Shown here one piece after another: positions 2,930 to 54,650 of a DNA stretch of 64,000 bases; the first letter of the stretch is position 1, and every line of letters starts with the position of its first letter. The translations under genes and the position numbers were made by a program. The stretch comes from Cyanidioschyzon merolae (lineage: Eukaryota): NCBI GenBank assembly GCA_000091205.1, contig AP006493.2; one strand, given 5' to 3'. Below the pieces are notes generated by a model. It ran no database searches. It was not told where the DNA came from and worked only from the letters and a program-made list of their open reading frames with translations.

Positions 2930-5900
2930 GTCGCGCGCCTGACGCCGCCGCCAGCGCGATACGCCGATTGTTTTTCATTACGAGATGTTTACTTAGGCCA
3001 GCGTTCTCCGATTGAGCGCATTGTTCTTTTCTTACTTTTTTGTGTTATTTTTTCAGTGCGCGATAAGGCATCTATAAAACCCCCTCCCTCCAAGTTACAT
3101 ACCCTTTACTGATTCCAGGATATTCTGGTCGTTTCATACGTCCTATCGAGTGTGCCTAGTACCTGCAGTTCCGTATTCGCCTTTGCACCGTACATGCTAG
3201 AGCAGATAGTTCATCGAGCTAGAACGGCGTTGCAGTGCCACACAGAGGACGTCGGCTCGAGGTGTGCTTCACCCGGCGTAGAATCGGGTCTCATTGTCTG
3301 TCTGTGCTCGGACAGTCTGCGGATGCAGGCTTGCCTTCGCTGCCCGACACGCTGGAGAAACTTGGTTGTTAGGATAAATCCTGGGAGCCGCCTCTCTCCT
3401 TCGTGATCTTGCATGGAATGCGTTGTTGTCGGTCGGCAATGCGGGTTTGTGCTTGACACCCACCATAGTGGGTAGGCGCAGAGAGCGCACTGAGCCCGTG
3501 TGCGCATCCGATTCGTTGGACCTTACGCCTAGAAGGTAGCATGTGAGTTTGTTCGCCACTAATGAGCGCTGAGGCTCGGTTAGCGGACCACCAGTTGCCA
3601 GTGCTACACTCAGAGTGAGTGTCCGGCCTTGGACTATCACGGTGATGCCAAGCTGCTGCTGTCCTTCAAGGAGCTCGCTGCGCGGCTGTTTCCAGCGCGG
3701 GCACTGTAAGCCTAAATATGTCAGCGTCTCGGGGGTCTCGTCTCCACAGCAGGGACAGTGTGATTCCCAGTGCGATTCCAGTGTTCCTATACGGCTTAGA
3801 GCCGGTGATGGTCGCCAGAAGCCACCAACGCGGATTTTCGCGAGCCACTGGGTACCTCGAGCAAGTCCCGGGAACTCCAGCGCCTCCCACCAGTACTTGC
3901 GTGTGTATGCTAGGTTGTAGTTCCGATATAGAGTCAAGCTGGCGTTACGGGCCCGACTGGTTCCGTGTCTACGTTCCCATATTGTTGTTTGGACGGTTCG
4001 CTTGAGGCGGCGGGAGCCTTGTACATTCCTGGGGAACGACTGGAGCGTGTTGTCTCCTAAGAGGCGCTTCAGCCAAATCTGCGTCGATTTCATCCAAGTG
4101 TTCTTGCGGCGCGTTGGGGTCTGCATGAAACTCCGACTCAAAGAGGTGCGCATGGTGGGCCCTTTTGGCCCACACACGTGCCTGGCAGCCTGCTGCTATC
4201 GCCTCTATCGAGGGTATTTCGAGTTCAAGTCCGAGTGCCAGGCAGGTTGGTCGCTCTGCTTTGCATTGAGCATCCAACAACAACGAGTCGCATTGCCCTG
4301 TTGGCGGCTGTCTGCAGACGTGAGGCGTTTGTGTGCTTCATGCCGCACCATTCAGCACCACAGGTCGCAGGCTGGATGATACACATCCTTGGTGCGCTGG
4401 TACGGATTGCTAAGCGGATAGAGGGGTCGGATAGGACTGGGCGTGCGATCGCTGTACGTCTGTGCATCTTGGCGATCATCTCGTCGATGTGTGCCTTTTC
4501 GTCGAGCGTCGGCGTGCGACAGACCCTCCAGGTAGCGATATTTTTCCACGATCGGAACTTCCTGATTCTGCAACCGCGACGAGCGATTGCGAATGCTCTG
4601 CGAGTCTCCATGGATGACCGCGACGCCGCACTTCGATGCTGCAATGCTCATCTCCCAGCAATCGGCCCAGGCGCTGACTTGTTCCATGCTAGCCGCAAGC
4701 GTTTCCGGGGCGGGTGCCAACAGCACGACATCGTCCGCAACTAGACGGCCTGCGAGGCGGTTTCTATGTGAGGGCTCCTCATCGGGCATCTCCACAGTTT
4801 ATCCGCGGCACCTCAAGCCCGTATTGTCTGCAGTTGTTCAGCAGATCGTTGATGAAGATGTTGAAAAGGAGCGAGGATGCGCGGTCGCCCTGTCGCAGTC
4901 CACGGCGCATTCTTATCGAAGGGGTTCTTGAGCCGTCGCCCAGTCGGATGCGCATCCATGAGTCTGCATAGAGCGCACGGAAGAACGCCAAGCACTTTTC
5001 GGAGACTCCGCCGCGTTCCATCTTGAGAAATGGAGCCTCGTGCGGGACCGTATCAAAGGCCTTTTGAAAGTCGATGAAGCATACGTAAGTTGGTTGTTGG
5101 CCGCTAATGGAGCGACGTTGCACCACTTCAGTTAGGGTCAGGGCATGGCTCATGCACTCCTCGCGGCTCCGGAATCCATCCTGTTCTGGGGCGAAGAACT
5201 TGCGTTCCTCGAGGCCCCTCTGGATCCAGTTCGTGAGGCTGGCGCAAAGTAGCTTCATGATTGACGGGATGAGGCGCATAGTCCGGTAGTTGCTCACGTC
5301 TGTGTCTGTGGGTTTGGGAGTCCTTTTTTAGGATCGGTACGACCTCGACAGTCCTCGGTACATCCGGGATGTACGCCTCTTCGAACATGCGTTGGATGAG
5401 CTCCAGAAGGCGTTTGCTTAAGATTGTGTCAGGTTCATCTGGTATCGATATTGTCCCTGTTGTCCCGTCTTTTGGGGTCGCCAGTCTCATCCACTCCGCA
5501 GGGATACCGTCGATGCCAGGTGTTTTGCGGTTGCTTGAGCATAGCAGGGTCCGAACAGATTCAGGCCAGAAGATTGGGTCGTTCCATTCCGGTACCGGTT
5601 CGAGGCGCCGTAGTTCCGCAGCATATTGGTGCCGATAGATTCGGTTTTGGCAGTGCCCAGTTGCGTCTTCATGCAGCTCTGGCCCGTGGTCCGTCCAGGC
5701 CTCATTCACTGAGGCACGCTCCGTCCTCAGCGCTTCCTCATAAACGATTGGTGTGAGTCCCAGGCACTTTTTTGGTGGGTCAAGTCTCGATCGAATATAG
5801 CGCCATGTCTCATCTTCGTTGGTGCTCTCTAGCATAGATTTCGCCAGGGAGGCGATTCTGCGGTTTCGATCCTCTCGTTTGTCTTCTCTGGAAAGTTTCT

Positions 5901-6650
5901 TCTTTCTTTTGATAGCTTCTTCATGTTGCGCCTGTGGCGCCGGTAGCGCTGCCTTCGCTTCCATGTCTCCGGCGTTTGCGCGTATGGCGGTGCGGTTGAC
6001 GATCTTGTTAAGTCGGTGGCATTCATCAATTCGAGTTTTGGTACGTCGTTTCAGGTACTGAGGTTTGCAACTGTTGTGTTCTGGTGCAAGCAGTCCCAGC
6101 TCTCCGGCAATCTTCTGATTCCCATCTACAAAATTGCTTCCCAATGGGTTTAAAGATTTGTATGCACGGCTTTTCGGATCTACAGCGCTGTGAGTAGGTG
6201 ACTGGGTTTGGTGGCAGCTTTCTTGAGTTCCCGCTGGGGGTGCCCTTTCGGGGGATGACTTGTGATGGGCTCGTTTGGGAGTTCTTCTTTCTATTCTTCT
6301 GTTATTTTTTCTTCTTCTTCTTCGGGCTCTTTCCTGAGCTACTTTCTCTGGTTACTCTTCTGGCATGTGGATCATGATGCCATTGTGTCTTTTCTTCTGT
6401 ATCCCGTTGGGCCTTTTTCGCTAATATAGATTCCTCGACTTGTATCAGTTTTTCATTACTGTACTGGTAATTCGATATCTCGTCGTCTAGTATCGAGGCT
6501 ATCCCACAAATATTCCATGATGCGAAACCTATCGAGTCGTAGCGCGTAAGGGAATAAGAATAGCGCTGCGGTACTCCAGAGATACGTTGTCGATTTAGAT
6601 GCACCCTCCACGGGGTGTGTGAACGCACATGCCACCAGCGCCTCCTGCAT
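2930..6650 (-). mobile_element. degenerate non-LTR (LINE-like) retrotransposon, full extent approximate
   Basis: Minus-strand ORF pieces carry reverse-transcriptase motifs (FIDFQKAFDTVPH, RGLRQGDxxSxLLFNIFINDL and a VADD variant of the F/YADD motif). The C-terminal piece has a Cys-rich knuckle (CPCCGDETPETLTYLGLQCPRW). A possible endonuclease start (SWNICGIAS) lies near 6.5 kb. The roughly 100-nt 3' tail (2935-3045) is repeated at 63.48-63.60 kb. Confidence 0.65.
3269..6144 (-). pseudogene. LINE ORF2 (endonuclease/reverse transcriptase) remnants broken into at least four frames (3269..4177, 4352..4795, 4779..5297, 5128..6144)
   Basis: The reverse-transcriptase motifs are split across overlapping ORFs in different frames, so frameshifts are present. 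Confidence 0.65.
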
Positions 6651-7499
6651 TCCAGTCGTTCACTGAGTGTCTGCTGCAGCGCTAGCGTAGAATCAGATGT
6701 ACATTAGTCAAGGTCGATTCAAATGCGACCTTTATCTTGCCGGACGTGTGAAGCTACCCGCAACCACAGGGGATACTCTATGAACCACCCTTTCAGCGGC
6801 TTCGTATCCGCTCCCCAAATACACAGGCGGGCAAGTCGCTTACTCCACTTTCGACAGCGAACATGCTGCCAGCCGTCTTCAAAAGTAGCCGCCGAAATTG
6901 TTTCCAAAGTTGAGGTAGCTACCCAAGGTAGGAGGTAAAACTGAGCCCGAGTTCGAGGATGGATCCAGGATTTGCGCCCGAACCTGCAGCGTTGTTTCGG
7001 GAGTGGCGGATGACTACCCAGAACTCTCGTCATCATTCTCTGCTGCTATTGCCGCCGCCATCCGTTCGATGCGGTCAAGGTCCCTGGAGAGGGCTTCCTT
7101 CCTCGTCGCCCGAGCACCCCGCGTTAACCCACTTTCAGAGTTTCTCCGCAAAAACCGGACTTCTTAGGCGCGCATACTGTATGGGGCTTTTAAGATAGTT
7201 GTTCTTTAATAAATAATTTGTTACTAGTTTGCATCACGCTCGGTGAGCGCACCTCGGAGATCCGGCAGGCATGAGACGCTACGCGTATGTCGCCGTTGAA
7301 GGGGAACGCGATCCTGATCTCTAGTATGTAGATCTAATGTAAAAGTTGTATTTTCGTTAACTTCATAGCCAAGTACAGTTTTTCAGTTCGTTTTTGTTTC
7401 AAACTTCATACAAGTCTAGTCAAGTGTTTTTTTGCAGTATATAACAGAAGCGTTCACAGAGCGTTGTTTTCCAAAAAAACTAAAAAAGGAAAGTTATGA

Positions 7500-9570
7500 A
7501 AACGCAAGTCGACGATCCTGGAGGCCCAGGGTCGCCGGCTGCCAGAAAAAAACAAAAAACAGTACCGAGTCCAGAAGAAAAGAAAGAGAAGAAGAACCGA
7601 AACGGGGACCCAACGTCGAAGGCGACAAGAAAGACGACTTTACGACGAGATGGTGGTGAAAACCTTTCTTCTTGGACATATCAAGGATCCGTACAGGGAA
7701 AAGTTGCGAGACGTTATCGAAATACGTGTCGACTCGTACTCCAAGAGTATTGTCAAGGCGTCGTCAGGACTGATGCATTTGGCGAGGGAGATGTATCGCG
7801 ACGTGACGGACATGGAAACGGTCGAGATTCCAGGCGAGTTCTTCGACAAGGCCTTTATTCGTCACGTGATGCATGGCACAGAGGAAGCGCGGAAGGAAAA
7901 ATGAGCTAGTGCATGCCCACCACGAAAACTTCGCGGAATTCTGCTTCGAGAGTAATCGATACAGCGGTGACGGAAATATTTACACATACGGGGTAATGAA
8001 GTACATTACGAACCTGAAGAACCATTTGACAGAGAACCTCGAACGTTTTATGATACGCGCCGTAGTTGCACTCTACCCGGGCCTCTCTCGCAACGGAAAA
8101 TGGGCGATTATCAATGGCATCAAGAACGATCGATAGTATGAAGATGAGGTCGAATTCGTCGACAAGAAGGCGTCACGCAGGAGCACGAATGAGGATTCCG
8201 TCATCCGCGCGGTTATACAAGAGCACCGTGCGGTACTGGGGTTGGCAAATCCAACAGACAAGATATCAGAGTTGAAAAAAGATAAGGAAAAATACTATCG
8301 CCTCGTCCTGCGCTATTTCGTGTTTCTGGATCGAGAGCTCGAACGCAAGGCGGAAATGAAGCTGAATGTAGAGACAAATGAAGAGTGGGAGAGACGGAAG
8401 GCTTTCCTAATGAGTAAGTGCCTCAGCGTCGTTCCGTTATGCAATATCCAGTCACATTTCGTGATTATCGACTCCACAGTCCTTCATGGCATAATGAGGG
8501 ACATCAGTCCGGTGTTCAATGTTAGCAGGGAGGACTTCACCGGCGAAAATCGGGAGACGTACTAGATGAGTATCTTCGATTTCAAACGTATCAAAGTCAG
8601 CAGGCAAAAGTTGTTCACTAGGATGATCGAAACCGATGGAGTAGCCATGTGTGTACACGATCGGCGGTTGAAGAAAGATCGTCCAGTTCCGCCCTCGGCT
8701 GCGCCCATCACGAAGGATGAAGAAAAGGAACAGGCGGATCCTGTGACGCAGGAGGTGCAGGACAACGACTTTGTTGTTTGCGCGGACCCTGGGAATACGA
8801 ATATCATAACCATTGCAGCACCGAAGCGTGCAGAAGATGGTACTGACGGCAACTTGCGTCAGAAAGACATGCGTCTTTTGAGGTTCTCGAGAGCGAGATA
8901 CTATCGAGAATCCGGTATAATGAATGCGAGGAAGAGAATTGCTGCATGGAATTCAGGAATGAAGGATCACCTGGAAGCTTTGAGCGAGGTGACGAGCCGA
9001 GGAGCGGACTTTGAAGCTTTTCGGAAATTCATGGAAGTTCGCATTGCGCATTGGGATGCGCTATGGGAGGAGTATACCAAGCCCCGGTGGGCTCGTTTGC
9101 GAATGAATCTATACGGTGGGAAGCAGCGGGCGTTCGCGAATTTTTTCAATGAGTTGAGTGCCCTCAAGGAGGATGAAAGTCAGAGGCCCGTAGTAGCATA
9201 CGGAGCAGGGCGCTGGAAGACCCAAAAAGGGACTACTCCAGCTCCAAAGACGAGGGTGTACAAGGAGTGTGCACGGCGTTTTGTTACATTACCTGTAGAT
9301 GAGTTCCGAACGTCCCATACACACCACGAGCTGGATTGTACACTTCAGAGGGTCGAAATGGAAAAGTGCCAGAGGAGCACTGAGGAAATACCAAAGTACG
9401 GTGCGCTGACGGAGGAGCAAATGTAAAGGAGGGCGAAAGTTCGTGGACTACTCGCACTGGTGAGTACAACTCCCAACGGCACGAAACGTATGGAGTTTGT
9501 GCATCGTGACTTACATGCCGCTATCAATATCAGGAAATGTGCGGTGCTGGAGAAAAGACCTCCAGAGTAG
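7500..9570 (+). pseudogene. TnpB/Fanzor-like RuvC nuclease reading frame (about 690 codons). It is interrupted by one apparent +1 shift near 7900 and by three in-frame stops (TAG at 8134, TAG at 8563, TAA at 9424), so it is either pseudogenised or intron-containing
   Basis: RuvC-I is present as [16 protein letters not shown] (a GxDxG-type motif). A candidate rearranged RuvC-II glutamate sits in LPVDEFRTSHTHHELDC. RuvC-III is present as RMEFVHRDLHAAINIRKCAVL. The N-terminus is very basic and NLS-like (KKRKRRR…). The ORF pieces 7650..7904, 7873..8136, 8242..8565, 8566..9426 and 9427..9570 lie in one frame apart from the 7900 shift. Confidence 0.6.
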
Positions 9571-9676
9571 ACACGAGAGAGTTTTGTGGGACACCCTCTC
9601 AAAGTGGAACTATATGAGAAGAAGTTGAAACCAGTAGTAGGTGGCCGGTCCAAAACGACGGGGAGGCCTCTGCACG
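9480..9676 (+). ncRNA. candidate omega-RNA scaffold of Fanzor copy 1. It overlaps the RuvC-III coding end and extends to the transposon right end; the putative guide would be 9677 onward (tcaattggagacttcttg…)
   Basis: At nucleotide level this block is conserved with the rc of 18185-18385 and with 55700-55896, and similarity ends at the same position in all three. Conserved segments include CTGAAACTGA, GGCGGCCAGTCAAAA and GGGAGGCCTCTGCNCG. Confidence 0.35.
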
Positions 9677-9925
9677 TCAATTGGAGACTTCTTGTCCAGG
9701 GCGCGGTTGCTGCCACTACTGGACACCGCTGGCGTCGTTCGACTTTCGATCGGTGCGCAATCGCGGCAGCGTCTCGACAGTCGCGATGCATCGCGTGCTT
9801 TCGATTCGAGGATGCCCGGTACCTGACCGGAGAGCACCATAGCAAAACGTTTCGACTGTTTATTCACCTTCCAGGCGTCTGGGTTTGTTCGTGTTTGCGA
9901 TAAATCTAGTGCGAAAAAAATAAAC

Positions 9926-12737: not shown

Positions 12738-15700
12738 AAGCGTCTGGTTGAAAGCAGCGCCTCTGTCGTGCGGCGTCTGGCCGGTCGGTACGAACTTGTT
12801 TCGTTACATGCCACCGGCCTCTGAAAGAAACGCTAATGCATGTCGTGAATGCTCCGAGCCCGACTATATTTGTTGCGTTTCGCATGAGGTTGCATGATTC
12901 TTCCCTGCGGGCCGGCTTCGGTGGCATCATTTCCTTTTGCGGAACGCAGACCTGCGGTGATCTGAACAGCAATCTCGGGACGAACTGTACCATTGCTTGC
13001 ATTCATTTTTTCTCACAGGTATTGGACGACTGGAGTATATCGTGTAGATAGGAGAAAGGTTGCAGAATGGATTTATGCTTGAAGCGCTAGCCCGCGAACA
13101 ACGGTCTACTTGACCACTTCAGGTTTTCTACAGTCCACAGTTAGATGGACTGTCATTCTCGAGGTCGGTATTCTGAACGTCGCGCTCCCGAAACACAACA
13201 TGACAAATGCTGTCTGCACCTACGACTGGCTCCTCGCTGATCACTTCCATGCCACATGTCCTCTAAGAAATACTGCCGAATAAGCTAAAGGATGTGTTGG
13301 GCGCGTGCCACTCTTACGAACAGTGATGAAGAGACGCGGATGGACAACTGAACAAGCATGCTTGTATGGCAGACTGTCGCGCATTGCGCAACACACTACC
13401 GAATCGAAGTGAAGCACGAAAGCGTATGATAGTTGGGGCAAAAGTTCGTCTCATTGTATGAGACTTGATTCGGTCAACATGCTCGCCCTGTATATATGTG
13501 CCCAAAGGGGCAAACCGCTGTTCTTACAGAAGAAACATGCGAGGATGACCACAACATCAGCGCTAGCGGCGATGCTGTCGATTAATCGCCTACTTACCGG
13601 CAAACGCACAGGATCGTTCAACATTTCATCCGTCACCGCAGCATACCTTGGTTTCTTTTTCGTGCTTTCCTGAATACTGCTCGTAGGAAACGCCGCTGTC
13701 CATCATGGAACACAAGTCAAGTCGTACGCGACTGAGATTATTGACGTTGTGCTACTCGTCGTGACAGTCTATTTTCGCTCGTTCAATCGCGTCGAAGTTG
13801 TATATTTGGTCGTCAAAAACCATTTTTTACCCTGTAAGTTCAAGAATAGAGTCGTTTCCATCCCCACGGCACCAAATTTCTGTGCCATATCCTCCACTGA
13901 CGTCTCGCTGCCTACCGTAACCAGCTCCGAACTGCGGTCGTGCTTCTCTGCTAGTGCGCTGGACAGATCAAAGACGCTCGCTTCGGTCTATGGGCGTGCT
14001 CGGGACGGAGCAGTTGAATACAAGGTCCCTGATGAGCAGTAGATACATTCATCGAGAATGCGAGCTTCCGAGCCACCGTCCACCCCATGCTTCTGAATCT
14101 CAAGAAAAAATTGTCTGTAGCGTGTAGCGACCAAACTTATGCCACGCTACCAAGAAAACGAGAATGGAAAGATTCCAACAGACAACGAAGTGCAATATGC
14201 TTTCGAAAAGGGACGGCAACGTACATGAAGAAAAGCCTGTTGGGGCGGAAGGATTTGCCGCAAGCAGTTGCCACGAAATTCGTTCTATCACACATCTGCC
14301 AGGAGAATCTACGAAAAATTGAGGCACGTGACACCATGAAGAATCGCCAGGCTGCTCACTCGTACAAAGCTCGTCTGGCTTTTCTAGCTCTAACGCACCA
14401 CGTAAAGCAAGTATACATAGGAGTTCTGGGCGCAAGGCTACTACTTAGCCGCATTTCTCCGGAATTATTTGAGAAAACGTTCATGCGATGATACAGCAGA
14501 TGCATGGAACAGAGGATGCAAGACAACCTGATCGTAAGATACGAAATGTGCACACCTAAGCTTCCCAGCATACCGTGACACGTTGCCAGGCAGCGTCGGC
14601 GATCGCTGCGATGCCTGCCATCCGAGTCCAGGACTCTATTCCGTGTAAAGAGCAGAGACGTGAGCGTCGAGCAGCATATCGTATGAGAAATATATCATGC
14701 TGCCGTCGAATGCCGTTTCGCTGATAGCCGGAGCGATCGGTGGTGGAAACGTCTTTCGAACGGAATCCATCATTGAATGGTAGAAGTTCTGGGAACTTTC
14801 CTAATGGGTTCGCGAGCAAGTCCTCAAGAGACGACGTTGGGCATTTTTCCTCGTCAGTCCAGCGGTCTGCGTCGCTTCGCCCACAACTTGCGACCGAAAG
14901 ACCGAAAAATGAAGCATGCGAGGTTTGAGCATGCTACCTGTAAGGGAACGAGAAGATTCCAGACTCGTGCGTATGCAGTGGATAATAGTATCGGTGCAAT
15001 GACCAACCCGTGTTCGAAGGCGTCGCGAATCATCTTGATGACGATGACGCAGCAAAGTCCAGCGGTACAGTGTCGAACGAGCCACTCCCTAGAGACTTCG
15101 GAGATTCCTGAAATCCGCATATACATTCGTAAGCTCTTGTTGCTGTGCTTCGCATACCCATGCCGCACAGCTATACAAGTTCGGAGACTATCGAAAAGCA
15201 GGAACATATCGGGTAATTGAGCGTTCCACTCTAATCCGACACACTTGCAGCGCACCTAGCTACAGGAACGCTTTTCCACCACAACAGCGGCGATGTTTGT
15301 ACGAAACCTGCACTCGTCTGCGATCCAGGAGCGACACCGAAATCGTGCGCTCGGAGCAAGGCCTCGGAGGAGAATCATCCCTGCCAGAGATCCGTGACGC
15401 TGCTCCCTACCGAACAAGACGTAGCAGTTCGCGTCATGTCCGGAATGCTGTAGCAAGTATCGCGATGATCGCTTCCTACGGTTTGTTGCAGTGCATTCAG
15501 GTTCAAGGAGGCTCAGCACGCATCCTCAAGGTTCACTTCAAGCGTGCATGTTCCATGTCATCGTATGTGAGGCAACGCTCAGTACGCAGCCGAAAGCTCA
15601 AGAACAGCCATCCAAGCAGGCATTGCTCAACGGGCGACAACAGACTCCAATGCATTTCACGGGGTTCCGTTCTTGGACGCTTCGGTGCAGGGATATGGAC

Positions 15701-16181: not shown

Positions 16182-17555
16182 TCAACGTGTTGGCTGGGCT
16201 CCAGCCGGTTCTGTGATGCGGGATGGAGTGTGCCGTTCGGGCGGCACTTGAATGCGCTCCAATCCAGCGAGAAACGGTCGAAGCACTTGCGGAATCGTAA
16301 CCGAACCGTCTTTTTCCTGAAAGTTTTCCAGAATAGACACAATCATCCGAGGCACTGCGCAGGCAGTCGCGTTGAGTGTATGCACGAAGCGCAGTTTTTC
16401 CGAAACCTGCTCTCTGTATCGGATATTCAGACGCCGGGCCTGGTAGTCGGTGCAGTTGCTTGCACTGCTGATTTCGCCAAAGGCGTTGCGACCCGGCATC
16501 CAGGCCTCAATATCAAATTTGCGATAGGCCGGGTTTCCCAGTTCCCGAGTCGGCATGTCGAGCACCCGATAATGGAGACCAAGTGCATCGAAAAGCTCCT
16601 CCTCGATAGATCGAAGCTCCTGATGAACTCGATCGCTTTCCTCTGGTCTTGAAAGCACGAACATTTCCACTTTGGTGAATTGATGGACTCGATACAGACC
16701 GCGCGTCTCGGTGCCGGCAGCACCGGCTTCACGACGGAAACAGTGACTGACGGCTGCCATCTTGATCGGAAGCTGCGTCTCGTCGAGTATCTCGTTCGCA
16801 TAATATCCCCCAAGCGGTATTTCCGCTGTGCCCGCCAGGCATAACGAGGTATCTGCCACCGAATATACTTGAGACGCTTCGCCGCGGGGCTGGAATCCGC
16901 AACCCCAAACCGTTTCCTCGCGCACAAGGTCGGGTGCGATCAGAGGTATGAAACCGTGCTTACCGGTAAGGTGCTGCATTGCCCAGTTCACCAACGCCAG
17001 CTCGAGCATTGCCCCTGCATTGCGAAGAAAATAGAAGCGCGCCCCAGCTACTTTGGCGGCGGCCTCGAAATCCACTATATCAAGTCGCTGCGCCAACTCC
17101 ACATGGTCTTTCGGCGAAAAGTCTGTAAAATCACGAGGCTTGCCCGCCATTCTCAAGAGTCGGGCTTGATCCTCGCCGCCTACAGGAGCATCAGGATGGG
17201 TCCGGTTGGGTATCCGTACTGCTTCTGCATAGAGTTGTTGCTCGGTCTCGGCAAGTTCAGCCTCAAGCGCAGTCACTCGCTCTTTCAACTGCTTACCAAG
17301 TGCGATACACTCGGAGCGCTCCTCAGGCGAGAGCTTCTGCATATTCTTCATGCGGGCTGCCACCTCGTTGCGCTGTTTTCGGACTAGATCCACCTCCGCC
17401 GTAAGCGCGCAGAAACGCTCATACAGCTGCACTACAAGGGTGGCGTTGACGTCGACTCCGCGCCGCTGGATATTCTCCTGGACCTGCGCCAAGTGATCTC
17501 GTACGTACCGAAGGTCGACCGGTGGCGGCGTGCCAGACACTCGCGTCAGCATCAT
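16182..17555 (-). CDS. SARS: seryl-tRNA synthetase (class II)
   Basis: Class-II motifs and core are clear (…FIPLIAPDLVREETVWGCGFQP…, CFRREAGAAGTETRGLYRVHQFTKVEMFVL). The listed ORF extends upstream to 17822, but homology begins at MMLTRV…, so I placed the start at 17555. An upstream organellar presequence cannot be excluded. Confidence 0.85.
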   Translation of the reverse strand: MMLTRVSGTPPPVDLRYVRDHLAQVQENIQRRGVDVNATLVVQLYERFCALTAEVDLVRKQRNEVAARMKNMQKLSPEERSECIALGKQLKERVTALEAELAETEQQLYAEAVRIPNRTHPDAPVGGEDQARLLRMAGKPRDFTDFSPKDHVELAQRLDIVDFEAAAKVAGARFYFLRNAGAMLELALVNWAMQHLTGKHGFIPLIAPDLVREETVWGCGFQPRGEASQVYSVADTSLCLAGTAEIPLGGYYANEILDETQLPIKMAAVSHCFRREAGAAGTETRGLYRVHQFTKVEMFVLSRPEESDRVHQELRSIEEELFDALGLHYRVLDMPTRELGNPAYRKFDIEAWMPGRNAFGEISSASNCTDYQARRLNIRYREQVSEKLRFVHTLNATACAVPRMIVSILENFQEKDGSVTIPQVLRPFLAGLERIQVPPERHTPSRITEPAGAQPTR

Positions 17556-17820
17556 GTTTGTTGGAGTAGCGCAACGGCTATCAGAATGTCGACAACGAAA
17601 CGCACTGGGTCGGAAACTGGTGCCGTCACCGAGCCAGCCTCGCATTCGGTACGGACGCGTTGCCCGTGCCTCCGCAATGGACCCGGCAACTGCTGGATAG
17701 CCAGTACGAAGCACTCGCAACCAGTTCCCTGCTGATTGGATCCATCGCATTCTCTTTCTTAAACCTATCGAATGTACGAAGGAGGTGAGCGATCTTTCCT
17801 CGCCTCCACGAGCAGGTTCC

Positions 17821-17950
17821 ATGGCTCACCACCCAGCGCTACAGCTTCTGGTGCACTGCAACAGCTTCTGGTGCACTGCAACAGCTTCTGGTGCACTGCA
17901 ACAGCTTCTGGTGCACTTCAACAGCTTCTGGTGCACTTCAACAGCTTCTG
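17821..17950. repeat. 20-bp minisatellite (CAGCTTCTGGTGCACTGCAA)x6, with the last units diverged
   Basis: Direct reading. It lies in the 5' flank of the seryl-tRNA synthetase gene and about 235 bp beyond the right end of Fanzor copy 2. Confidence 0.9.
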
Positions 17951-18184
17951 GTGCGAAGCGCAAGCACGAAGGGCGCTTGTACTGAGCGTTCGCCGGCGAT
18001 GATCCGGGGCGCCGGCACGCCGCATGAAGAGGTGCTCGGGTGGATCGCGGGATACTGCACCTATGGCTGGAGTGGGGATCTGACGCCCGTGAAAGAAATT
18101 GGACCTGCATAACCACCCAGACGTTATAGATGAGGACAACGATACATGTTTGATGGCCATGGAGGGTGAATATGTATGTATTTA

Positions 18185-18385
18185 CGCGCAGAGGCCTCGC
18201 AGCCTTTTTTGACTGGCCGCCTTCGATCAGTTTCAGCTTCTCGTTGTATCCGATGAGCCTGAGAGGCTGCCCAACCAAGTCACATCGCGTCAGCTCTTGG
18301 GGTATCGTTTTCAGCACCGCACATAGCCTGATATTGAGTACAGCGTTAAAATCCCGGTTCACGAACATCTCGCGTTTATAGCCTC
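18185..18385 (-). ncRNA. candidate omega-RNA scaffold of copy 2; the putative guide is the flank below 18185 (minus-strand reading: taaatacatacatattcaccctcc…)
   Basis: Its reverse complement aligns with 9480-9676 and 55700-55896, and the conservation boundary falls at the same place. Confidence 0.3.
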
Positions 18386-19297
18386 TGTTAGAACGCGCCA
18401 TTGCAAAGAAAGCTGGAACTCGTGCCCTCATTGCCATTTGGTGCTCAGTCAGCTCTCTGTCATTTTCTATCGCACAAGCGATCCACTGGCGTGTCTCTAT
18501 GCCGGCCGTCTGAAGTGCATATGCCCGCTCGTCCCAGAGATTTTTTAATCTTTGAAAGCGGCCGCACTTGTACACACCCATAGGTGAGGAACTTCTCGGA
18601 AAGACAAGGATTTACGCAGGATAGACGAAAGATGCTTCGGTGCTACCGTGGTGGAAGCTTTTGCGATTCGCCCATCGGAGCTATTATGATATGTGTCATG
18701 ATAGAAAACGCTCCTTCTATAGATATGGACCTCGGAGCCTAAGGAGGAATGAAAAGCAGCTCTGTCCCCGATAGAATCAGCAAAAGCTCGAAAGAGAATG
18801 TTGAAAGGCCACGGTGTCCAATAGATGCACGTCGCAAGAAGTCAGAGAACAATCTTCCATGATTCGACGAGTTGGGAGCTAATGTATACGCCCTCTCTAC
18901 GAGAGAAACTGAGGCCGACAAATGCATCTACCAAAGTTCGAACAGATGATGATGTCGGTGCTCTCTTCGAGTTCGTTGTACGTACAAAGAACTCCGTCTC
19001 TGCGAATACCCGTATACGCTTCGACCGTCTCATCCGAGGAAAGTATGATCGACTGAAAAAAAACAACCGACGTTCCTGTGCTTCATGCAGATCGCAACGT
19101 TCCAGGAACACTAGAGTTGCGATTTCGATGGACCATGACCGGGTGTGAACCAGGACTCTTTTTATGCGACTGTATCCGAGTGCTTTCAGGGCTGCACGAA
19201 CAAGATCTTGAGAATCAGAAATGCCACTGCTGGCTATGATCATCGCTTTCGCTTTTCTTACGATGATCAACGGGTCGTTTTCTACCATTGACCGCAA
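18300..19297 (-). pseudogene. truncated and decayed Fanzor nuclease ORF of copy 2 (C-terminal RuvC-III portion plus an upstream segment shared with copy 3)
   Basis: ORF 18842..19297 (minus) has …VRAALKALGYSRIKRVLVHTRSWSIEIATLVFL…, matching …VRVALETLGHSYVKRVLVHAQSSSTEIGTLVFL… in copy 3. No RuvC-I motif is present. The listed ORF 17826..18581 reads through the element end into the minisatellite and is spurious beyond about 18185. Confidence 0.45.
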
Positions 19298-20283
19298 GCA
19301 CCTTCAAGAATATCAGAGTTTGTCCCAGAGAGCATATCCTTCCTTCTTTCAGTGTCCCTGTATCGTCAGAATACAATGGTATGCCTGACATGAAAGATGA
19401 ATGCAGTCCTGCGCTGCACTGCTCAGTAAAGAATATATATGTATCATACAGGCAATTCGACTAGGATCTAAACCGATACATCGCATTTTTTGTTTTCGAT
19501 CTCCTGCGACACACCAAATCGGGGATGAAACACTTTTGACTTGAAAGACGCTACGAGGCCTTGAGTTTTAAACTAGCGTGTTCTGCATACACATCAAAGA
19601 GCATTTCCCGATTTCTCATTTCTTGACGAAGGTTATCGCGCCATGCATTCGTAGTATTCGACCCGCACTTGAAGTACCTACCGGTCAGGTTTGAAGTCCA
19701 ACGGATGCGACATACTGCGTCCCGACTTTGCTCTAGGCAAGCCTGAATGGGACCGGACTCGCTTCAGCGGCTCCCTTAAACAGCCTCTCGCATTCCAAAG
19801 GCCGGACTTGTTCCTTCGCTGAGGCGCTGGAACACATCTCCCGTACCGTGCAAACTTTAAAATGGAAAAAATGCTACGCTCCACGTCTTGCGACCCGAAA
19901 CTGCGTCGTCTCCGCAGTGCGTTGGGCAGGCGTTGCGCCCAGAGAGATGCACTGACTTTCGTTAAACTCCAGCCGCATCTCGAAAATACAAGAATCGATA
20001 CTCGCTGTGTCTGTCACTTGGTGGCAGTTTATGCGCCCAAGTAACGAGGAACCGACAACGATGCGGTTCACTGAGGTCTAACCTGCAAGCACCAACGCAC
20101 AGATCGAAAGCCGCATGTGCGGCAGTGCAAGGCCGGAGGCGCTTCAACCCTGCCCCAGCTGATACTTTTTGACGCCTTCATCACAGCGCATGAAACGCTG
20201 AGCTTGCCTTTATCGCACCTGGACGCTAAGAATGTCCTATTCCTCGAACAACTTCAAACAGCGCAGCGCTGGACCAGGAACGC

Positions 20284-22362: not shown

Positions 22363-22853
22363 CAGCGACGTTGTGGCTCGCGACCTCTCCACCCTGTGTG
22401 CACACGCCCGTAGTTCTCGAATTATGCCCCGCTGCCGATGCACAGTTCTGAATCTGAGCACTCGCTGGTTGCAGGGGAAGCAACGCCGCTGCTTCCCAGG
22501 AACGTCAAAGCCCCGAGCGCGAACTTGAACTGGGAGCTGGACAAGGCCAACGAATGCTGCCTGAATGAGTCCGGTACTAGGCATGCAGTTGCTCGCAGAG
22601 GGTATGCTCTCGGCACGGGTTGCTTTGAAAACCAGCGCTCGCTGTCGTGCGATAAGGGTACGCACCGGAGAGTAAACGCTTGGAATGGGTAAATTTAGAA
22701 TGGAGACGCTTTCGCGACGAAGGCGCAGGTGCGTTATCAGGTCGCCGGCGTATGCGCAGGGCTGCTACGGACAGCGCGTGGTCGCTTCGCGGCGTCGGGG
22801 TACCGAGATCGATGTCCTTAAAGTGCAGTTATGTACAGAAACATCCGTTGGGC

Positions 22854-25438
22854 TATAATTATACAACTATATCCTATTTGTTTCCGTTCGTGTTCGCACA
22901 GGCACTCAGTGCCCGGCACGCACCGCGAGCGACTGGAGCACTGTCGCGCACAGCTCTGATGCTGGCAAAGATAGCTCGCGATACGCCGCATTATTTCTAC
23001 AAAGCAGTCATTCTGTGGACACTACGACAATACACCGCCTGTATCGTTATCGGTATCCTGAACATCGTGCGCCCGCACCAAAACACGTTCAACAATCTCT
23101 ACGCAACTGCCTACTCGCCAAGCCATTCCAGCTTATGCCTTCTCGAAGGAATGCCGCGCAACAGGCGCCAGCATCTGAGGTTCGCGTACCGTTGCATCGC
23201 ACGACGACAACGAGACATTGAGGGTCAGCGCAGAAGGCAGGTTTCTGTGCGAGACCGTCGCGCTGCGCACATGACGCCGTCAATGGCGTCCCTCAAGGAG
23301 CATACATATCCCAGAAGCGACAGGAGTTCACCTCGCTCGATTCCAGTCCACGACGGGAGCACTGCTTGGCCTGTATGCAGGCAACCAAAACGTGGCAATC
23401 CGCTGTTCGCAAGGAAGCGACATGCGCGTACGACAAAAAGAACAGCACCAACAACAACAGCGGCAGCAGCAGCAGCAGCCCAGGAGCCGATGCTGGCGAG
23501 CGGTCGCCTACAAACCGCCACACAGACGGCGTCGTTCCTCACCTCATCCTGCGTTGAAACATTTCGAGGCTTCTCCATCGCGCTTGCTGATGCCCTGTCC
23601 TTGGACAGCGCCGCCTAGCACAGCACGGGAGAAGCACCGGCGTACGCATCTGGGATTCGTGTTCAGCTGCTCTTTGTAGCAGTTTGTTTTCCGCGGCCTC
23701 ATCCAGCGGCATGCGGCCTGTCTCTGCGTCGCCAACAACCGTTTCTACGCCCACGGACACGTTTCGAAAACACGACTCGCTCGCGTCCCCGGCACCGAGA
23801 CAAGCCGGACGCCGTGAGCGATAGCGTAGCACCGTCCCCGAGAGACTCTCGCCTCCTTGATGGACGTCGCGTCCGAATGGTCGCTGAACCGTGATGCCTG
23901 GCTTCCCGGCATCTCGCGCTACTCCGTTTCCGTAAATAGCGCTGGGCAGCGCATACCAGACTGCCTCCGGGAACGTGAGCGCCCCCCGCTCCCTCAACAG
24001 TCTAGTGGATATGGTCCATGGTTACGAGACCAGGACCCATGAGGGTACCCGCTGAGACACTCTTTGTCGCGTGTGGCCTTCCTGGTGCGCGATGCCCGGT
24101 CTATCTACGCAGCAACCAGGACACATTCGTACTGCTCCGCAGCGGGCATCGGCCGAGCTCGTCCAAGCTCTTTCGCCTACGCGCTCGGAGCCCAAAGACG
24201 TTTACAGCGACCACGGACACTGACCGAATATCACTTTGGATGTGCTCTGTGAGACCCAGGCCTGCGTCTCGAAACAGGACTCGATTTACGCCCATAGAGA
24301 TAGATGAAGAGCAAGTATTCAGGGCGGGCGTGGATCCCGAGTTCGAGTGCGTCACGACTGCCGCCGTGCCTCCAGCCCAGCGGGGCAGAACCGGCGATCA
24401 GCACCGCGAGCAGGTGTCGCTGCTCAGCCTGCTCCACGACTCGGTACCAGCGGGCGTCGTGCACCACACACACACCAGGAGGCGTACCAGCAGGTGCAGT
24501 GACTACCTCAGGGGCTATCTCGGCAATCAAAGCATCCTATCGAGCAGCGGCGGATGCTTCGTGCAGTGCACTCAGAGCGCCTATACGAGCGTCCGAATGC
24601 AGCACGCGGACGCTTTTCGACACAGGTACATGACACCGTGCTGCTGTCGCCAATGGCATCGATTGTGCGGAGCCAAGGAGCGTACATCCACACCGCCTAG
24701 TTCGGTGCGTCGGAAACGGGAATCATCGACGAGGCGCGCGGTATGCCTGAAACCTCTGGTACGGGGTGTGCTTTTGGAGCACACGGGCTGCACTCGTGCT
24801 CCTTCGATGCGAGCGTGCGACAGGCACAAGAATCGATTCCGTACAGATCCCGTCGACGAATGCACGACAACATACAAGTATCACGAACTGGGGTTCAGCC
24901 TAATCCAGTTCGAGAAGAAAAAGAGCATGAAACAGAGATCAATGCACGGGATGGTGTACGGGACGCCGAACGAACGTCAGATGGCGACAGCGTCAAAGTT
25001 CGGTGACCTCGTAGAGCCTGAAACAGAGACCAATGCACCAGGTGGTGTACGGGACGCCGAACGAACGTCAGATGGCGACAGCGTCAAAGTTCGGTGACCT
25101 CGTTTGGTGCGAATGTGCCAGCACCTAGGCGCCCAGGCTCTTTCCATACTACGACTTGAGCCGCTCGATCAACACGCGGAAGCGAGTCTTGGTTTGAGTC
25201 GAGCGAGCTTTCGACGCAGTCGTTCAGTACTCAGTATCGGTGCGCTGCTGAAACGCTGATGACGCTCGATGGAAAACTCAGTGGTCAGCAGAGAGGGAGT
25301 TGGATTCCAGACTGGAGCAAGGCACTGGTATGGTGCGGTTGGGAAATCCCGCAATGCGAGAGCGGCTTGGGTATGCTCTGAAGACGATGTTCTTTGCCAA
25401 CAAGCGAGCGATAATGATGCTCCGTTATTCGATGTTCG
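22854..25438. repeat. large direct repeat DR1, copy A (about 2.59 kb, non-coding as far as I can tell)
   Basis: About 98-99% identical to 29305..31887. It contains a (CAA/CAG)n tract near 23440 and a 91-bp tandem duplication at 24930..25104. The listed ORFs inside it are low-complexity. Confidence 0.85.
24930..25104. repeat. tandem duplication of about 91 bp inside DR1 (also present in copy B at about 31380-31560)
   Basis: The unit aaacagaga(t/c)caatgcac…gatggcgacagcgtcaaagttcggtgacctcgt occurs twice head-to-tail. Confidence 0.7.
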
Positions 25439-29176: not shown

Positions 29177-29304
29177 TAGTTTTCGGGTAGCTGCTCAGGC
29201 GCCATACTGGCAGCAGCACAGCAGTCGATGAGGAATATGCATATTTATACAGCGATGTCTAGTAATGTCGCGGACGCTTCCTTGCAAGGAGTTGTGCATC
29301 TGGA

Positions 29305-31887
29305 TATAATTATACAACTATATCCTATTTGTTTCCGTTCGTGTTCGCACAGGCACTCAATGCCCGGCACGCACCGCGAACGACTGGAGCACTGTCGCGC
29401 ACAGCTCTGATGCTGGCAAAGATAGCTCGCGATACGCCGCATTATTTCTACAAAGCAGTCATTCTATGGTCACTACGACAATACACCGCCTGTATCGTTA
29501 TCGGTATCCTGAACATCGTGCGCCCGCACCAAAACACGTTCAACAATCTCTACGCAACTGCCTACTCGCCAAGCCATTCCAGCTTATGCCTTCTCGAAGG
29601 AATGCCGCGCAACAGGCGCCAGCATCTGAGGTTCGCGTACCGTTGCATCGCACGACGACAACGAGACATTGAGGGTCAGCGCAGAAGGCAGGTTTCTGTG
29701 CGAGACCGTCGCGCTGCGCACATGACGCCGTCAATGGCGTCCCTCAAGGAGCATACATATCCCAGAAGCGACAGGAGTTCACCTCGCTCGATTCCAGTCC
29801 ACGACGGGAGCACTGCTTGGCCTGTATGCAGGCAACCAAAACGTGGCAATCCGCTATTCGCAAGGAAGCGACATGCGCGTACGACAAAAAGAACAGCACC
29901 AACAACAACAGCGGCAGCAGCAGCAGCAGCCCAGGAGCCGATGCTGGCGAGCGGTCGCCTGCAAACCGCCACACAGACGGCGTCGTTCCTCACCTCATCC
30001 TGCGTTGAAACATTTCGAGGCTTCTCCATCGCGCTTGCTGATGCCCTGTCCTTGGACAGCGCCGCCTAGCATAGCACGGGAGAAGCACCGGCGTAGGCAT
30101 CTGGGATTCGTGTTCAGCTGCTCTTTGTAGCAGTTTGTTTTCCGCGGCCTCATCCAGCCGCATGCGGCCTGTCTCTGCGTCGCCAACAACCGTTTCTACG
30201 CCCACGGACACGTTTCGAAAACACGACTCGCTCGCGTCCCCGGCACCGAGACAAGCCGGACGCCGTGAGCCAGAGCGTAGCACCGTCCCCGAGAGACTCT
30301 CGCCTCCTTGATGGACGTCGCGTCCGAATGGTCGCTGAACCGTGATGCCTGGCTTCCCGGCATCTCGCGCTACTCCGTTTCCGTGAATAGCGCTGGGCAG
30401 CGCATACCAGACTGCCTCCGGGAACGTGAGCGCCCCCCGCTCCCTCAACAGTCTAGTGGATATGGTCCATGGTTACGAGACCAGGACCCATGAGGGTACC
30501 CGCTGAGACACTCTTTCTCGCGTGTGGCCTTCCTGGTGCGCGATGCCCGGTCTCTGTACGCAGCAACCAGGACACATTCGTACTGCTCCGCAGCGGGCAT
30601 CGGCCGAGCTCGTCCAAGCTCTTTCGCCTACGCGCTCGGAGCCCAAAGACGTTTACAGCGACCACGGACACTGACCGAATATCACTTTGGATGCGCTTTG
30701 TGAGACACAGGCCTGCGTCTCGAACCAGGACTCGATTTACGCCCATAGAGATAGATGAAGAGCAAGTATTCAGGGCGGGCGTGGATCCCGAGTTCGAGTG
30801 CGTCACGACCGCCGCCGTGCCTCCAGCCCAGTAGGGCAGAGCCAGCGATCAGCACCGCGAGCAGGTGTCGCTGCTCAGCTTGCTCCACGACTCGGTACCA
30901 GCGGGCGTCGTGCACCACACACACCAGGAGGCGTACCAGCAGGTGCAGTGACTACCTCAGGGGCTATCTCGGCAATCAAAGCATCCTATCGAGCAGCGGC
31001 GGATGCTTCGTGCAGTGCACTCAGAGCGCCTATACGAGCGTCCGAATGCAGCACGCGGACGCTTTTCGACACAGGTACATGACACCGTGCTGCTGTCGCC
31101 AATGGCATCGATTGTGCGGAGCCAAGGAGCGTACATCCACACCGCCTAGTTCGGTGCGTCGGAAAAGGGAATCATCGACGAGGCGCGCGGTATGCCTGAA
31201 ACCTCTGGTACGGGGTGTGCTTTTGGAGCACACGGGCTGCACTCGTGCTCCTTCGATGCGAGCGTGCGACAGGCACAAGAATCGATTCCGTACAGATCCC
31301 GTCGACGAATGCACGACAACATACAAGTATCACGAACTGGGGTTCAGCCTAATCTAGTTCGAGAAGAAAAAGAGCATGAAACAGAGATCAATGCACGGGA
31401 TGGTGTACGGGACGCCGAACGAACGTCAGATGGCGACAGCGTCAAAGTTCGGTGACCTCGTAGAGCCTGAAACAGAGACCAATGCACCAGGTGGTGTACG
31501 GGACGCCAAACGAACGTCAGATGGCGACAGCGTGTAAGGTCGGTGACCTCGTTTGGTGCGAATGTGCCAGCACCTAGGCGCCCAGGCTCTTTCCATACTG
31601 CGACTTGAGCCGCTCGATCAACACTCGAAAGCGAGTCTTGGTTTGAGTCGAGCGAGCTTTCGACGCAGTCGTTCAGTACTCAGTATCGGTGCGCTGCTGA
31701 AACGCTGATGACGCTCGATGGAAAACTCAGTGGTCAGCAGAGAGGGAGTTGGATTCCAGACTGGAGCAAGGCACTGGTATGGTGCGGTTGGGAAATCCCG
31801 CAATGCGAGAGCGGCTTGGGTATGCTCTGAAGACGATGTTCTTTGCCAACAAGCGAACGATAATGATGCTCCTTTATTTGATGTTCG
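29305..31887. repeat. large direct repeat DR1, copy B
   Basis: Collinear with 22854..25438. It begins about 130 bp upstream of the RRP36-like start codon. Confidence 0.85.
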
Positions 31888-38616: not shown

Positions 38617-39353
38617 GTCGCCTGTAAGACGGGTGTCCCTTGCGATGACCCCGGCTTCATAGCACATCATTCTGGGCAGGGCGGGTTCGCACTTGTACGA
38701 AGAGCAGTCGTGCACAGTGTGCGCGCAGCGTAGCGATATAGTCGCAAATGAAACGCTAGCGCGCGGGGCTCGCGGTGCCCAGGGTTTCAGCAGTAGCGAG
38801 CACTCTGCTTGTTGACGAAATCGCGCGCTGGAGGAGAACAAGCGCCCCCGACGCATGCTCTGATTTTTGGTTCAGGGCAGTCAACGATATACGAGGCAGG
38901 AGAGTTCCAAGTACGGTGGCTCGAGTCAACGCTCATGTTGCGAGGTTCATCGCATCTATTCGCGTTGAGCCTCGCGAGAGATAAAAAGCTGCATCTAGGC
39001 CAGGGTAATAGTGACCGGCTGCTCTACAAATGCGCTCTCGTTGAGGCTTCAGCTTTTAACGTTGTAAACAGTATTTGGATTAGCCTGCAGACACGGAATC
39101 TTTACACCTGTCAAGAAGCTCGTGTTGCTTTTGGGCCCTTACAGTGATTGACACTTGGCATGAACGTCCTTGAAAGCGCCAAGCCGCTGGGCGCTGCACG
39201 AGGCCTCGTTTGTGCACGCGCGTACGCAAGCGGGAAAAGCTGGGCAATGTGCCGCTCTTATCTGTTTCTCGACTGGTGTCCGGGTAACATCGTCCAGGTC
39301 TGCAGGTTGCCTTTGGGATGTACTTCGCGGTACCCAAAGAATAGAAGATGATT

Positions 39354-41402: not shown

Positions 41403-41479
41403 CAAGAAAAGGCTATATTTTGTAGAAAAGTGCTGAATGACGTCCAGCCACACAAGCTTTGCAAGATTCTTCCCATTGA

Positions 41480-54425: not shown

Positions 54426-54650
54426 GTCACCCCTGATCATGAGTGCCGCCACTGGTGCAACGCAAGTTGGTTTCGTCCCTGATGCGCGTAATCGAATACT
54501 TTTTCGCAGTGTAGAGCCGGAGATTGAAATCCCGATGCAGTGTACCGTATAGATCGCAGACGAACTGCCTGTAAGGTGTATTCCTTACTGAGCCGTGTAA
54601 CGATGACTGCGTTCCTCATCCAGGTCAGTCATACCATAGTAATCTAATGG

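Follow-up and report, generated by a model that had tools for sequence, protein, structure and literature searches.

The closest described relative of the locus analyzed here is CMe-1A, a Fanzor1 family of Cyanidioschyzon merolae reported by Bao and Jurka in 2013 (Mob DNA 4:12, PMC3627910; Repbase), in the same paper that defined Fanzors. CMe-1A comprises ~150 copies of ~3 kb that are ~80% identical to the consensus and devoid of TIRs, and some of these copies are still intact; its 5′ 635 bp correspond to TE-N2_CMe, an independent element (PMC3627910). Fanzors have also been described to possess a rearranged RuvC-II, with Gly or Pro replacing the canonical Glu and an alternative Glu located downstream (Jiang et al. 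2023, PMC10530073).

We analyzed a stretch of 64,000 nucleotides, hereafter the window, from the nuclear chromosome 11 of the red alga C. merolae 10D. The proteins encoded by neighboring genes matched CMK genes of this strain exactly, thereby confirming the eukaryotic nuclear context, OST48 included, recognized in the initial annotation. The Fanzor1 relic is intergenic, with a reverse-transcriptase relic on one side and a dienelactone hydrolase gene on the other, and no NCBI protein is annotated over it. Locus L019, its ortholog, shares 99% identity with the window copy, and the insertion is common to related environmental populations, also at 99% identity. With high confidence, we assign this region, a decayed and non-autonomous copy, to CMe-1, the Fanzor1 family of C. 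merolae, and most likely to subfamily CMe-1A. Its major components are as follows.

6589..7220, strand not assigned: 632-bp repeat directly 5′ of the core unit, also present separately in L040
7231..9757, + strand: Fanzor1 element of the CMe-1 type, core repeat unit (5′ UTR, Fanzor1 pseudogene, and 3′ terminal region), from blastn
7496..9699, + strand: Fanzor1 pseudogene (~733 codons if repaired), from translations and alignment with relatives

Comparison by blastn with 83 related loci placed the start of the core homology at 7227-7250 in most copies and its end at 9720-9757, and end alignments revealed boundaries consistent between copies. This shared unit (~7231-9757) supersedes the span of 7190-9676 initially assigned to the element. 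It is common to more than 70 other copies, to which the window copy is 80 to 86% identical at the nucleotide level (repeat-family set: 80 loci kept out of 242 matching stretches). The 5′ regions are modular: at least four classes of repeated sequence flank the copies on the 5′ side, tracing of the 5′ end rendered inconsistent junctions with window positions 3000-4242 and 3000-3537, and several copies appear to be 5′-truncated. In L008, L010, L013, L014, and L020, the 632-bp repeat adjoins the core without interruption, whereas its separate occurrence in L040 is inverted. Its size matches that of the 635-bp TE-N2_CMe, and the repeat probably represents the 5′ module, TE-N2_CMe-like, by which subfamily CMe-1A is defined. 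The subfamily name itself is inferred from the published description rather than from alignment to the consensus. No inverted repeat joins the 6589 or 7231 end with the 9757 end, and neither a transposase gene in the core unit nor a DDE_3 remnant in the window copy was found. The family is already known; the initial view of it as uncharacterized holds in biochemical terms but not for the family as such, which Bao and Jurka described as CMe-1A (PMC3627910).

As anticipated, RuvC-I, VDEFRTS, and RuvC-III all lie in one + strand frame and in the expected order. The features recognized along the reading frame are listed below.

7496..7649, + strand: N-terminal region, basic and NLS-like, interrupted at the first frameshift (translations)
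8710..8785, + strand: acidic repeat of ~75 nt (25 aa), present here as one unit, in a disordered linker that precedes RuvC-I
8773..8817, + strand: RuvC-I motif of 15 residues including ADPG (alignment); catalytic Asp codon at 8788-8790
9187..9216, + strand: PVVAYGAGRW, the canonical RuvC-II strand, in which Gly replaces the catalytic Glu of TnpB
9295..9315, + strand: VDEFRTS, whose Glu (codon 9301-9303) is the alternative catalytic residue in the rearranged RuvC-II
9313..9378, + strand: His/Cys cluster, without CxxC pairs, where the zinc ribbon (TNB domain) would lie
9505..9549, + strand: RuvC-III motif RDLHAAINIRKCAVL, with the catalytic Asp (codon 9508-9510)

The pseudogene begins with an ATG at 7496, and the position of the family stop codon (TAG), 9697-9699, reads CAG here and GTCTAGGG in most copies. 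The predicted basic N-terminus was indeed present at 7496-7637, although distributed over two frames, with MKTQ..ARKKQKTVPSPEEKKEKKNRNGD at 7496-7609 followed by RRRRQERR at 7614-7637; the intact relative P0047 has a comparable Lys/Arg-rich N-terminus. The acidic repeat occurs in two to four units in other copies (extra HSPs in L005 and L007; P0001 sequence) and coincides with a coverage peak at 8701-8800, within a linker predicted to be disordered (pLDDT <50 at residues 374-471 of the P0001 model). The RuvC-I Asp occupies an invariant column (D421 of P0047) and aligns to DPGR of Parasitella Fanzor1. Equally invariant are the Gly at the canonical RuvC-II (G559 of P0047) and, 33 residues downstream, the Glu of VDEFRTS (E592), a motif that aligns to DEFRTS in Parasitella Fanzor1 and to DEYKTS in SpuFz. 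RuvC-III reads HRDLHAA, i.e., both flanking Asn of the consensus NRDFNAA are His, around another invariant Asp (D659 of P0047). Judging from these alignments, the window copy keeps all three catalytic D/E/D residues and the family has the rearranged RuvC-II typical of Fanzors. PF07282 was significant in 5 of 19 family members, P0058 alone being shown above the gathering score.

For the conceptual protein we retrieved 64 homologues (E 0 to 1e-53; closest, 70 to 86% identity), a signal far beyond chance. As a single query it had no match in Pfam, NCBIfam, or PDB. Profile A1, built from the family with the window sequence included, matched Parasitella Fanzor1 (9cf0; E=1.4e-14) and SpuFz from Spizellomyces (8gkh; E=2.1e-7); in both matches the catalytic motifs were aligned. 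We also built an AF2 model (pLDDT 73.7, pTM 0.69) of P0001, the closest near-intact relative, which has 78% identity to the window copy. Foldseek placed seven Fanzor1 chains of SpuFz, GtFz, and PpFz on top (E 2e-14 to 2e-12; TMq 0.46-0.56, TMt 0.48-0.70). Matches to Cas12 and Fanzor2 had E-values of 0.02 or worse in profile and fold searches. Membership in Fanzor1 is therefore assigned through the family profile and the predicted structure of the relative P0001. Both lines of search had been proposed in the initial annotation, and their best matches to solved Fanzor1 proteins sustain its reading of a TnpB/Fanzor-type RuvC nuclease element, assigned here to Fanzor1, as opposed to a bacterial IS605/IS607 TnpB. 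Arrival of a bacterial IS200/IS605 or IS607 TnpB through contamination or recent horizontal transfer would agree with the TnpB-like order of the RuvC motifs and with the matches of some family members to PF07282 (Cas12f1-like TNB). Nonetheless, we consider the probability of such an origin practically nil, given a relic set among nuclear genes of C. merolae chromosome 11, Fanzor1 as the best profile and fold match, a protein of ~730 aa with a basic N-terminus, Gly in place of the canonical RuvC-II Glu, and no TnpA (Y1 or serine recombinase) found near the relic.

The reading frame of the window copy is interrupted by two frameshifts and four in-frame stop codons, instead of the three stops counted initially. 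The first frameshift results from the absence of 2 nt after 7608 (indels mapped against L005, L018, and L034), and the remaining disruptions are the following.

7893..7897, + strand: second frameshift, a run of A with one extra A (gap versus L005, L018, and L034)
8134..8136, + strand: in-frame TAG, Lys in relatives (alignment)
8563..8565, + strand: in-frame TAG, Trp in relatives (alignment)
9424..9426, + strand: in-frame TAA, Glu in relatives (alignment)
9568..9570, + strand: in-frame TAG, Ser or Trp in relatives (alignment)

The window copy is a multiply disrupted pseudogene and is therefore unable to encode a nuclease, which rules out the RNA-guided nuclease that had been expected from it. 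Most other copies of the repeat family are broken too. Introns and recoding as the cause of the disruptions were discarded by the alignment blocks and the indel mapping. It is extremely improbable that the gene is functional, with stops and frameshifts that are removed by introns or recoding or are due to sequencing error. The stops replace conserved Lys, Trp, Glu, and Ser/Trp in well-aligned blocks and not in intron-like gaps, the 2-nt deletion and the 1-nt insertion are relative to three other copies, and neighboring genes use standard stops. Furthermore, the broken ORFs recur in four independent metagenome assemblies, where matching fragments of 84, 87, 107, and 286 aa were called at the locus. 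The very few introns of C. merolae also count against a functional gene, which would in turn be favored by the retention of all catalytic D/E/D residues and by the intact CMe-1A copies (Bao and Jurka, PMC3627910).

The 286-aa ORF (8566-9426) is still open in the window copy and, together with the insertion being common to related environmental populations at 99% identity, would fit a relic exapted by the host, either through this ORF or through a 3′ RNA. However, the ORF lacks RuvC-III and the N-terminal half of the protein, it is further split into 99 and 168 aa in assembly L003, and the window copy is indistinct from dozens of other decaying copies, all of which makes exaptation very improbable. 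Two further features lie at the 3′ end of the relic.

9632..9757, + strand: 3′-terminal region with complementary segments, candidate omega-RNA scaffold by position (single-sequence folds)
9733..9755, + strand: terminal stem-loop CGTCGTTCGA-CTT-TCGATCGGTG, just inside the 3′ boundary and slightly degraded here

The complementary segments include CAGTAGT at 9632 and ACTACTG at 9715, and 78% of the cells are paired versus 30 to 63% in slid controls. Covariation in a hand-specified three-helix structure of this region was no higher than in shuffles, and RNAalifold rendered a weak consensus for the last 270 nt (−3.2 kcal/mol). Of 43 distinct 3′ ends, ~30 have the terminal hairpin, which exists in two sequence versions. 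We infer a putative omega-RNA at the 3′ end from its position.

Besides the Fanzor1 relic, the window holds eight further decayed pairs in which a Tc1/mariner-type (DDE_3) transposase is followed by a Fanzor, with orientation and order alike in all of them; DDE_3 was matched with E=1.8e-13 in the relic at 54.5-55.9 kb. No convincing TIRs were detected in the relics at 54-56 kb or 18-20 kb. DDE_3 also lies upstream of CMe-1-like copies in L047, L048, L052, and L053. Intact relatives at 30 to 40% identity are common in environmental assemblies, at odds with the lineage-specific family proposed initially. Two of them, P0047 and P0048 (40% identical), reside in 3.65-kb elements with the arrangement TIR-DDE_3 transposase-Fanzor1-TIR, and the relatives L088-L094 have a DDE_3 gene and TA-flanked TIRs of 30 to 32 nt. 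The eight pairs and the TIR-bearing relatives go beyond the description by Bao and Jurka (2013) and, because of them, CMe-1A may be read as a transposase-less derivative of a Tc1/mariner-type element carrying a Fanzor. This origin is indirect, since the window copy itself has neither a DDE_3 remnant nor TIRs.

Alternatively, the family would not derive from Tc1/mariner but be Helitron-like or unclassified, using its 3′ terminal hairpin in transposition, a scenario that we find unlikely, albeit with a probability that is not trivial. It would accommodate the lack of TIRs, both in the window copy and in CMe-1A as described (Bao and Jurka, PMC3627910), the conserved stem-loop a few bases inside ~30 of 43 distinct 3′ ends, the modular 5′ regions, and the apparent 5′ truncations, and the occurrence of Fanzor1 in Helitrons (PMC10530073) counts in its favor. 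Against it stand the eight same-orientation DDE_3-Fanzor relic pairs in the window, the DDE_3 sequences upstream of four CMe-1-like copies, and the intact relatives with TIRs and a DDE_3 gene. Moreover, no Rep/helicase gene was seen, and the stem-loop can equally be explained as the last stem of an omega-RNA.

An intact protein of this family would have acted in the nucleus as an RNA-guided endonuclease that cuts double-stranded DNA. Its putative guide RNA, an omega-RNA, would arise by transcription of the 3′ end of the element and overlap both the last part of the reading frame and the terminal stem-loop; the guide segment itself would be read from the flank. Mobilization would have occurred in trans by a Tc1/mariner-type DDE transposase like those encoded beside Fanzor in the other window relics and in the intact environmental relatives. 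The window copy would now be nothing beyond repeat DNA.

The Fanzor1 protein of this clade combines an N-terminal half classified as DUF8286 with a rearranged RuvC-II and a zinc ribbon from which most cysteines are missing. Environmental copies L088-L093 are 98 to 100% identical at different insertion sites, which, at the sequence level, suggests current mobility. The clade could thus represent an unexplored, still active branch of RNA-guided nucleases on Tc1/mariner DDE_3 transposons, a proposal that we advance only tentatively. If it is correct, the near-identical pairs of dead relics in C. merolae (98.5% and 99.6%) would be relics that are still being copied, and the structurally conserved stem-loop at the 3′ ends of the copies in this alga would form the final stem of the omega-RNA.

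The window copy on its own matters little, being one dead member of a transposon family that Bao and Jurka (2013) had already included when defining Fanzors. Its recovery confirms that Fanzor motifs are recognizable by eye from sequence. As the window shows, a sizeable part of the intergenic DNA in this "compact" genome is Tc1/mariner and Fanzor debris; the blank reference annotation at this locus, together with a Pfam DUF for the N-terminus of the clade, indicates that repeat and gene annotation of this model alga can be improved. For biochemical tests of this Fanzor1 clade, candidates are available in the intact environmental relatives, whose ends are clear.

Compared with known systems, the family shares with the bacterial TnpB proteins of IS200/IS605 and IS607 (OMEGA) the RuvC fold, the motif order, and the expected location of the guide RNA, 3′-terminal in the element and overlapping with the last part of the reading frame. 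It differs from them in its eukaryotic host, approximately twofold larger size, basic NLS-like N-terminus, rearranged RuvC-II, and absence of a TnpA partner. The solved Fanzor1 nucleases SpuFz1 (8GKH), PpFz1 (9CF0), and GtFz1 (9CER) resemble the clade of the window copy in fold (Foldseek E ~1e-14), the RuvC-I DPG, the Gly at the canonical RuvC-II, the alternative Glu in DE(F/Y)xTS, the NRD motif of RuvC-III, and a long helical N-terminal half. However, sequence identity to them is only 12 to 14%, the zinc-ribbon cysteines (CxxC pairs) are largely absent from the clade, and its N-terminal region is filed by Pfam as DUF8286 (a literature search on PF26935 was without result); the window copy, in addition, is a pseudogene. 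Tc1/mariner (IS630-like, DDE_3) transposons with Fanzor1 have the gene order of the eight window relics, whereas the window copy lacks transposase and TIRs, and its 5′ part is the unrelated 632-bp repeat. The closest likeness is to CMe-1A, with which the window copy has in common the C. merolae host, Fanzor1 coding capacity, an old multicopy family without TIRs whose copies are 80 to 86% identical among themselves, a comparable length (~3 kb versus 3.17 kb for 6589-9757, including the 632-bp upstream repeat), and a 5′ part that is also an independent short repeat. Compared by description, the two show no substantive difference, the window copy being one degraded member of the family.

Comparison by blastn with 83 related loci revealed a shared unit at ~7231-9757 (80-86% identity) that lacks a transposase; no terminal inverted repeats (TIRs) were found at its ends in the window copy. 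The unit is immediately preceded by a 632-bp repeat (6589-7220) that adjoins the core without a gap in five other copies and also occurs alone and inverted in the related locus L040. Bao and Jurka, who defined Fanzor1 and Fanzor2 in 2013, list one C. merolae Fanzor1 family, CMe-1A, whose roughly 150 copies match the consensus at about 80% identity; this consensus is about 3 kb long, without TIRs and with undetermined target-site duplications, and its 5′ 635 bp share 95% identity with the distinct element TE-N2_CMe (PMC3627910). The window copy plus the 632-bp repeat (6589-9757, 3.17 kb) agrees point by point with this description, which makes it a decayed copy from a family on record since that paper. 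We infer the name CMe-1A from the published description rather than from alignment to the consensus. The initial annotation was not right in proposing a new, lineage-specific family.

Fanzor cores have upstream flanks of at least four repeated classes, which makes the 5′ part of the elements modular. Another repeated sequence, window 3000-4242, adjoins the core directly in the related locus L005; seven other Fanzor copies ("class D") are flanked upstream by its first ~170 bp in inverted orientation, and 3000-3166 is repeated near 63492-63537. Between the 632-bp repeat and 4242 sits a non-LTR retrotransposon reverse-transcriptase relic (~4300-6150, minus strand; Pfam RVT_1, E=9e-16) with the motifs FIDFQKAFD and VADD, its frame broken by stops and frameshifts.

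Translation of the plus strand bears out the three RuvC motifs in one frame, but the earlier count of three stops was too low: four stops and two frameshifts are present.

Features of the window copy (plus strand; stops and motifs from translation, frameshifts from indel comparison)
7496 onward: Lys/Arg-rich stretch, from the ATG at 7496, upstream of the motifs
After 7608: frameshift 1, 2 nt missing relative to other copies
7893-7897: frameshift 2, one extra A in an A-run relative to other copies
8134 (TAG), 8563 (TAG), 9424 (TAA), 9568 (TAG): in-frame stops
8710-8785: acidic 25-aa repeat, one unit (up to four in other copies; L005, 6226-6450)
8773-8817: RuvC-I motif, same frame as the other two
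9295-9315: VDEFRTS, then a His/Cys cluster
9505-9549: RuvC-III motif RDLHAAINIRKCAVL

The stops occupy conserved sense codons (Lys, Trp, Glu, Ser/Trp) within well-aligned blocks of the family alignment, and both frameshifts are small indels as judged against three other copies. At 9697-9699, the family stop codon (TAG in most copies) is CAG. Gene calls from four independent assemblies give the same broken fragments at this locus (84, 87, 107, and 286 aa), an orthologous contig (L019) is 99% identical, and NCBI annotates no protein there. Introns or recoding were rejected as causes, accounting for none of the damage. The window copy is non-functional, and nearly all other copies are broken too. 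The acidic repeat (75-nt unit) falls within a linker predicted to be disordered, just before RuvC-I, and copies carry between one and four units of it. In this Fanzor1 clade, the two CxxC pairs of SpuFz/PpFz are mostly absent from the zinc-ribbon place (9313-9378), which holds scattered His and Cys residues only (family alignment A1).

The eukaryotic nuclear context assigned initially is confirmed by three neighbors exactly matching C. merolae 10D entries: BAM80483.1 (dienelactone hydrolase), BAM80487.1 (CMK101C), and BAM80491.1 (OST48). The CMK gene names point to chromosome 11, and the copy thus lies in a nuclear chromosome of a red alga.

Characterized Fanzors are nuclear endonucleases that cleave double-strand DNA under RNA guidance, and the end of the transposon gives rise to their guide RNA by transcription (PMC10432273, PMC10530073). 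By extension from these, the CMe-1 family would function as an RNA-guided nuclease with a 3′-end guide RNA. In CMe-1 copies the reading frame runs into the last ~125 nt. Complementary segments in this stretch pair at 78% in a formal count, with covariation not above shuffles. A stem-loop a few bases within the 3′ boundary occurs in about 30 of the 43 distinct ends, either as TTCGA-CTT-TCGAA or as TTTTTC-TTTT-GAAAGA. By position, this end is a plausible candidate for an omega-RNA.

The class of CMe-1A was left open by Bao and Jurka (PMC3627910). A tblastn search of the 64-kb window detected eight further Fanzor-like relics (26-56% amino acid identity), each with a DDE_3 (Tc1/mariner/IS630-type) transposase relic upstream on the same strand, the best preserved matching Pfam DDE_3 with E=1.8e-13.

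DDE_3 plus Fanzor-like relics
13035-14606, plus strand
18261-19516, minus strand
22970-25182, plus strand
29421-31631, plus strand
39678-42400, minus strand
49980-52028, minus strand
54528-55818, plus strand
58548-60599, minus strand

Including the main copy, nine Fanzor-derived loci thus occupy 64 kb of a genome reputed poor in transposons. Two near-identical dispersed repeat pairs (22851-25438 and 29302-31887, 98.5% over 2.59 kb; 39341-41401 and 49643-51703, 99.6% over 2.06 kb) each comprise a DDE_3 plus Fanzor relic in an advanced state of decay, with genes between the pair members; the relics are old and their duplication or conversion is recent. Immediately downstream of the ORF for seryl-tRNA synthetase (16182-17822) is a 251-aa ORF (17826-18581, minus strand). 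It partly coincides with the relic of a Fanzor C-terminus (18261-18452) and has no annotated counterpart in the protein collection.

P0047 and P0048, two intact relatives at 40% identity, are encoded inside 3.65-kb elements with 30-32-nt TIRs starting TATAC. In these the Fanzor gene is preceded by a DDE_3 gene bearing a Tc3-type HTH, and copies at differently flanked loci share 98-100% identity. Such Tc1/mariner-type elements, found on environmental contigs (L088-L094; 46-50% GC), are possibly active; besides the DDE_3 transposase they carry an intact Fanzor1 of 698-699 aa and a short tandem-repeat ORF. DDE_3 also lies upstream in a few CMe-1-like copies (L047, L048, L052, and L053). A Helitron-like or other mechanism using the 3′ hairpin, instead of a Tc1/mariner origin, seems unlikely to us. 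The most economical reading, indirect for the window copy, derives the transposase-less CMe-1A from a Fanzor1-carrying Tc1/mariner element.

The Fanzor interpretation itself was right, as family-profile and fold matches to solved Fanzor1 proteins indicate. As a single query, the repaired window protein matched nothing in Pfam, NCBIfam, or PDB; the matches came from a 19-member family profile and from the model of a relative. Clear homologues number 64, mostly fragments (55-86% identity) from hot-spring metagenomes in which the window-copy locus itself is also present; the remainder are intact proteins of 580-710 aa (30-41% identity). Many are precomputed in Pfam as PF26935 (DUF8286), and a few family members reach PF07282 (Cas12f1-like TNB). 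The profile matched the solved Fanzor1 proteins of Parasitella parasitica (9cf0, E=1.4e-14) and Spizellomyces punctatus (8gkh, E=2.1e-7), and weakly that of Guillardia theta, with the DPG, DEFRTS, and NRD motifs aligned to their Fanzor1 counterparts. The closest nearly intact relative (P0001, 78% identity) was modeled by AlphaFold2 (pLDDT 73.7, pTM 0.69); its best Foldseek matches were seven Fanzor1 chains (E 2e-14 to 2e-12, TM up to 0.70), followed by Cas12 and Fanzor2 at E of only 0.02 or worse. The RuvC-I Asp, DEFR Glu, and RuvC-III Asp are invariant in the family alignment, and an equally invariant Gly (AYGAG) takes the place of the RuvC-II Glu of TnpB. This Gly and the DEFR Glu correspond to the same rearranged catalytic site that is reported as typical of Fanzors (PMC10530073).
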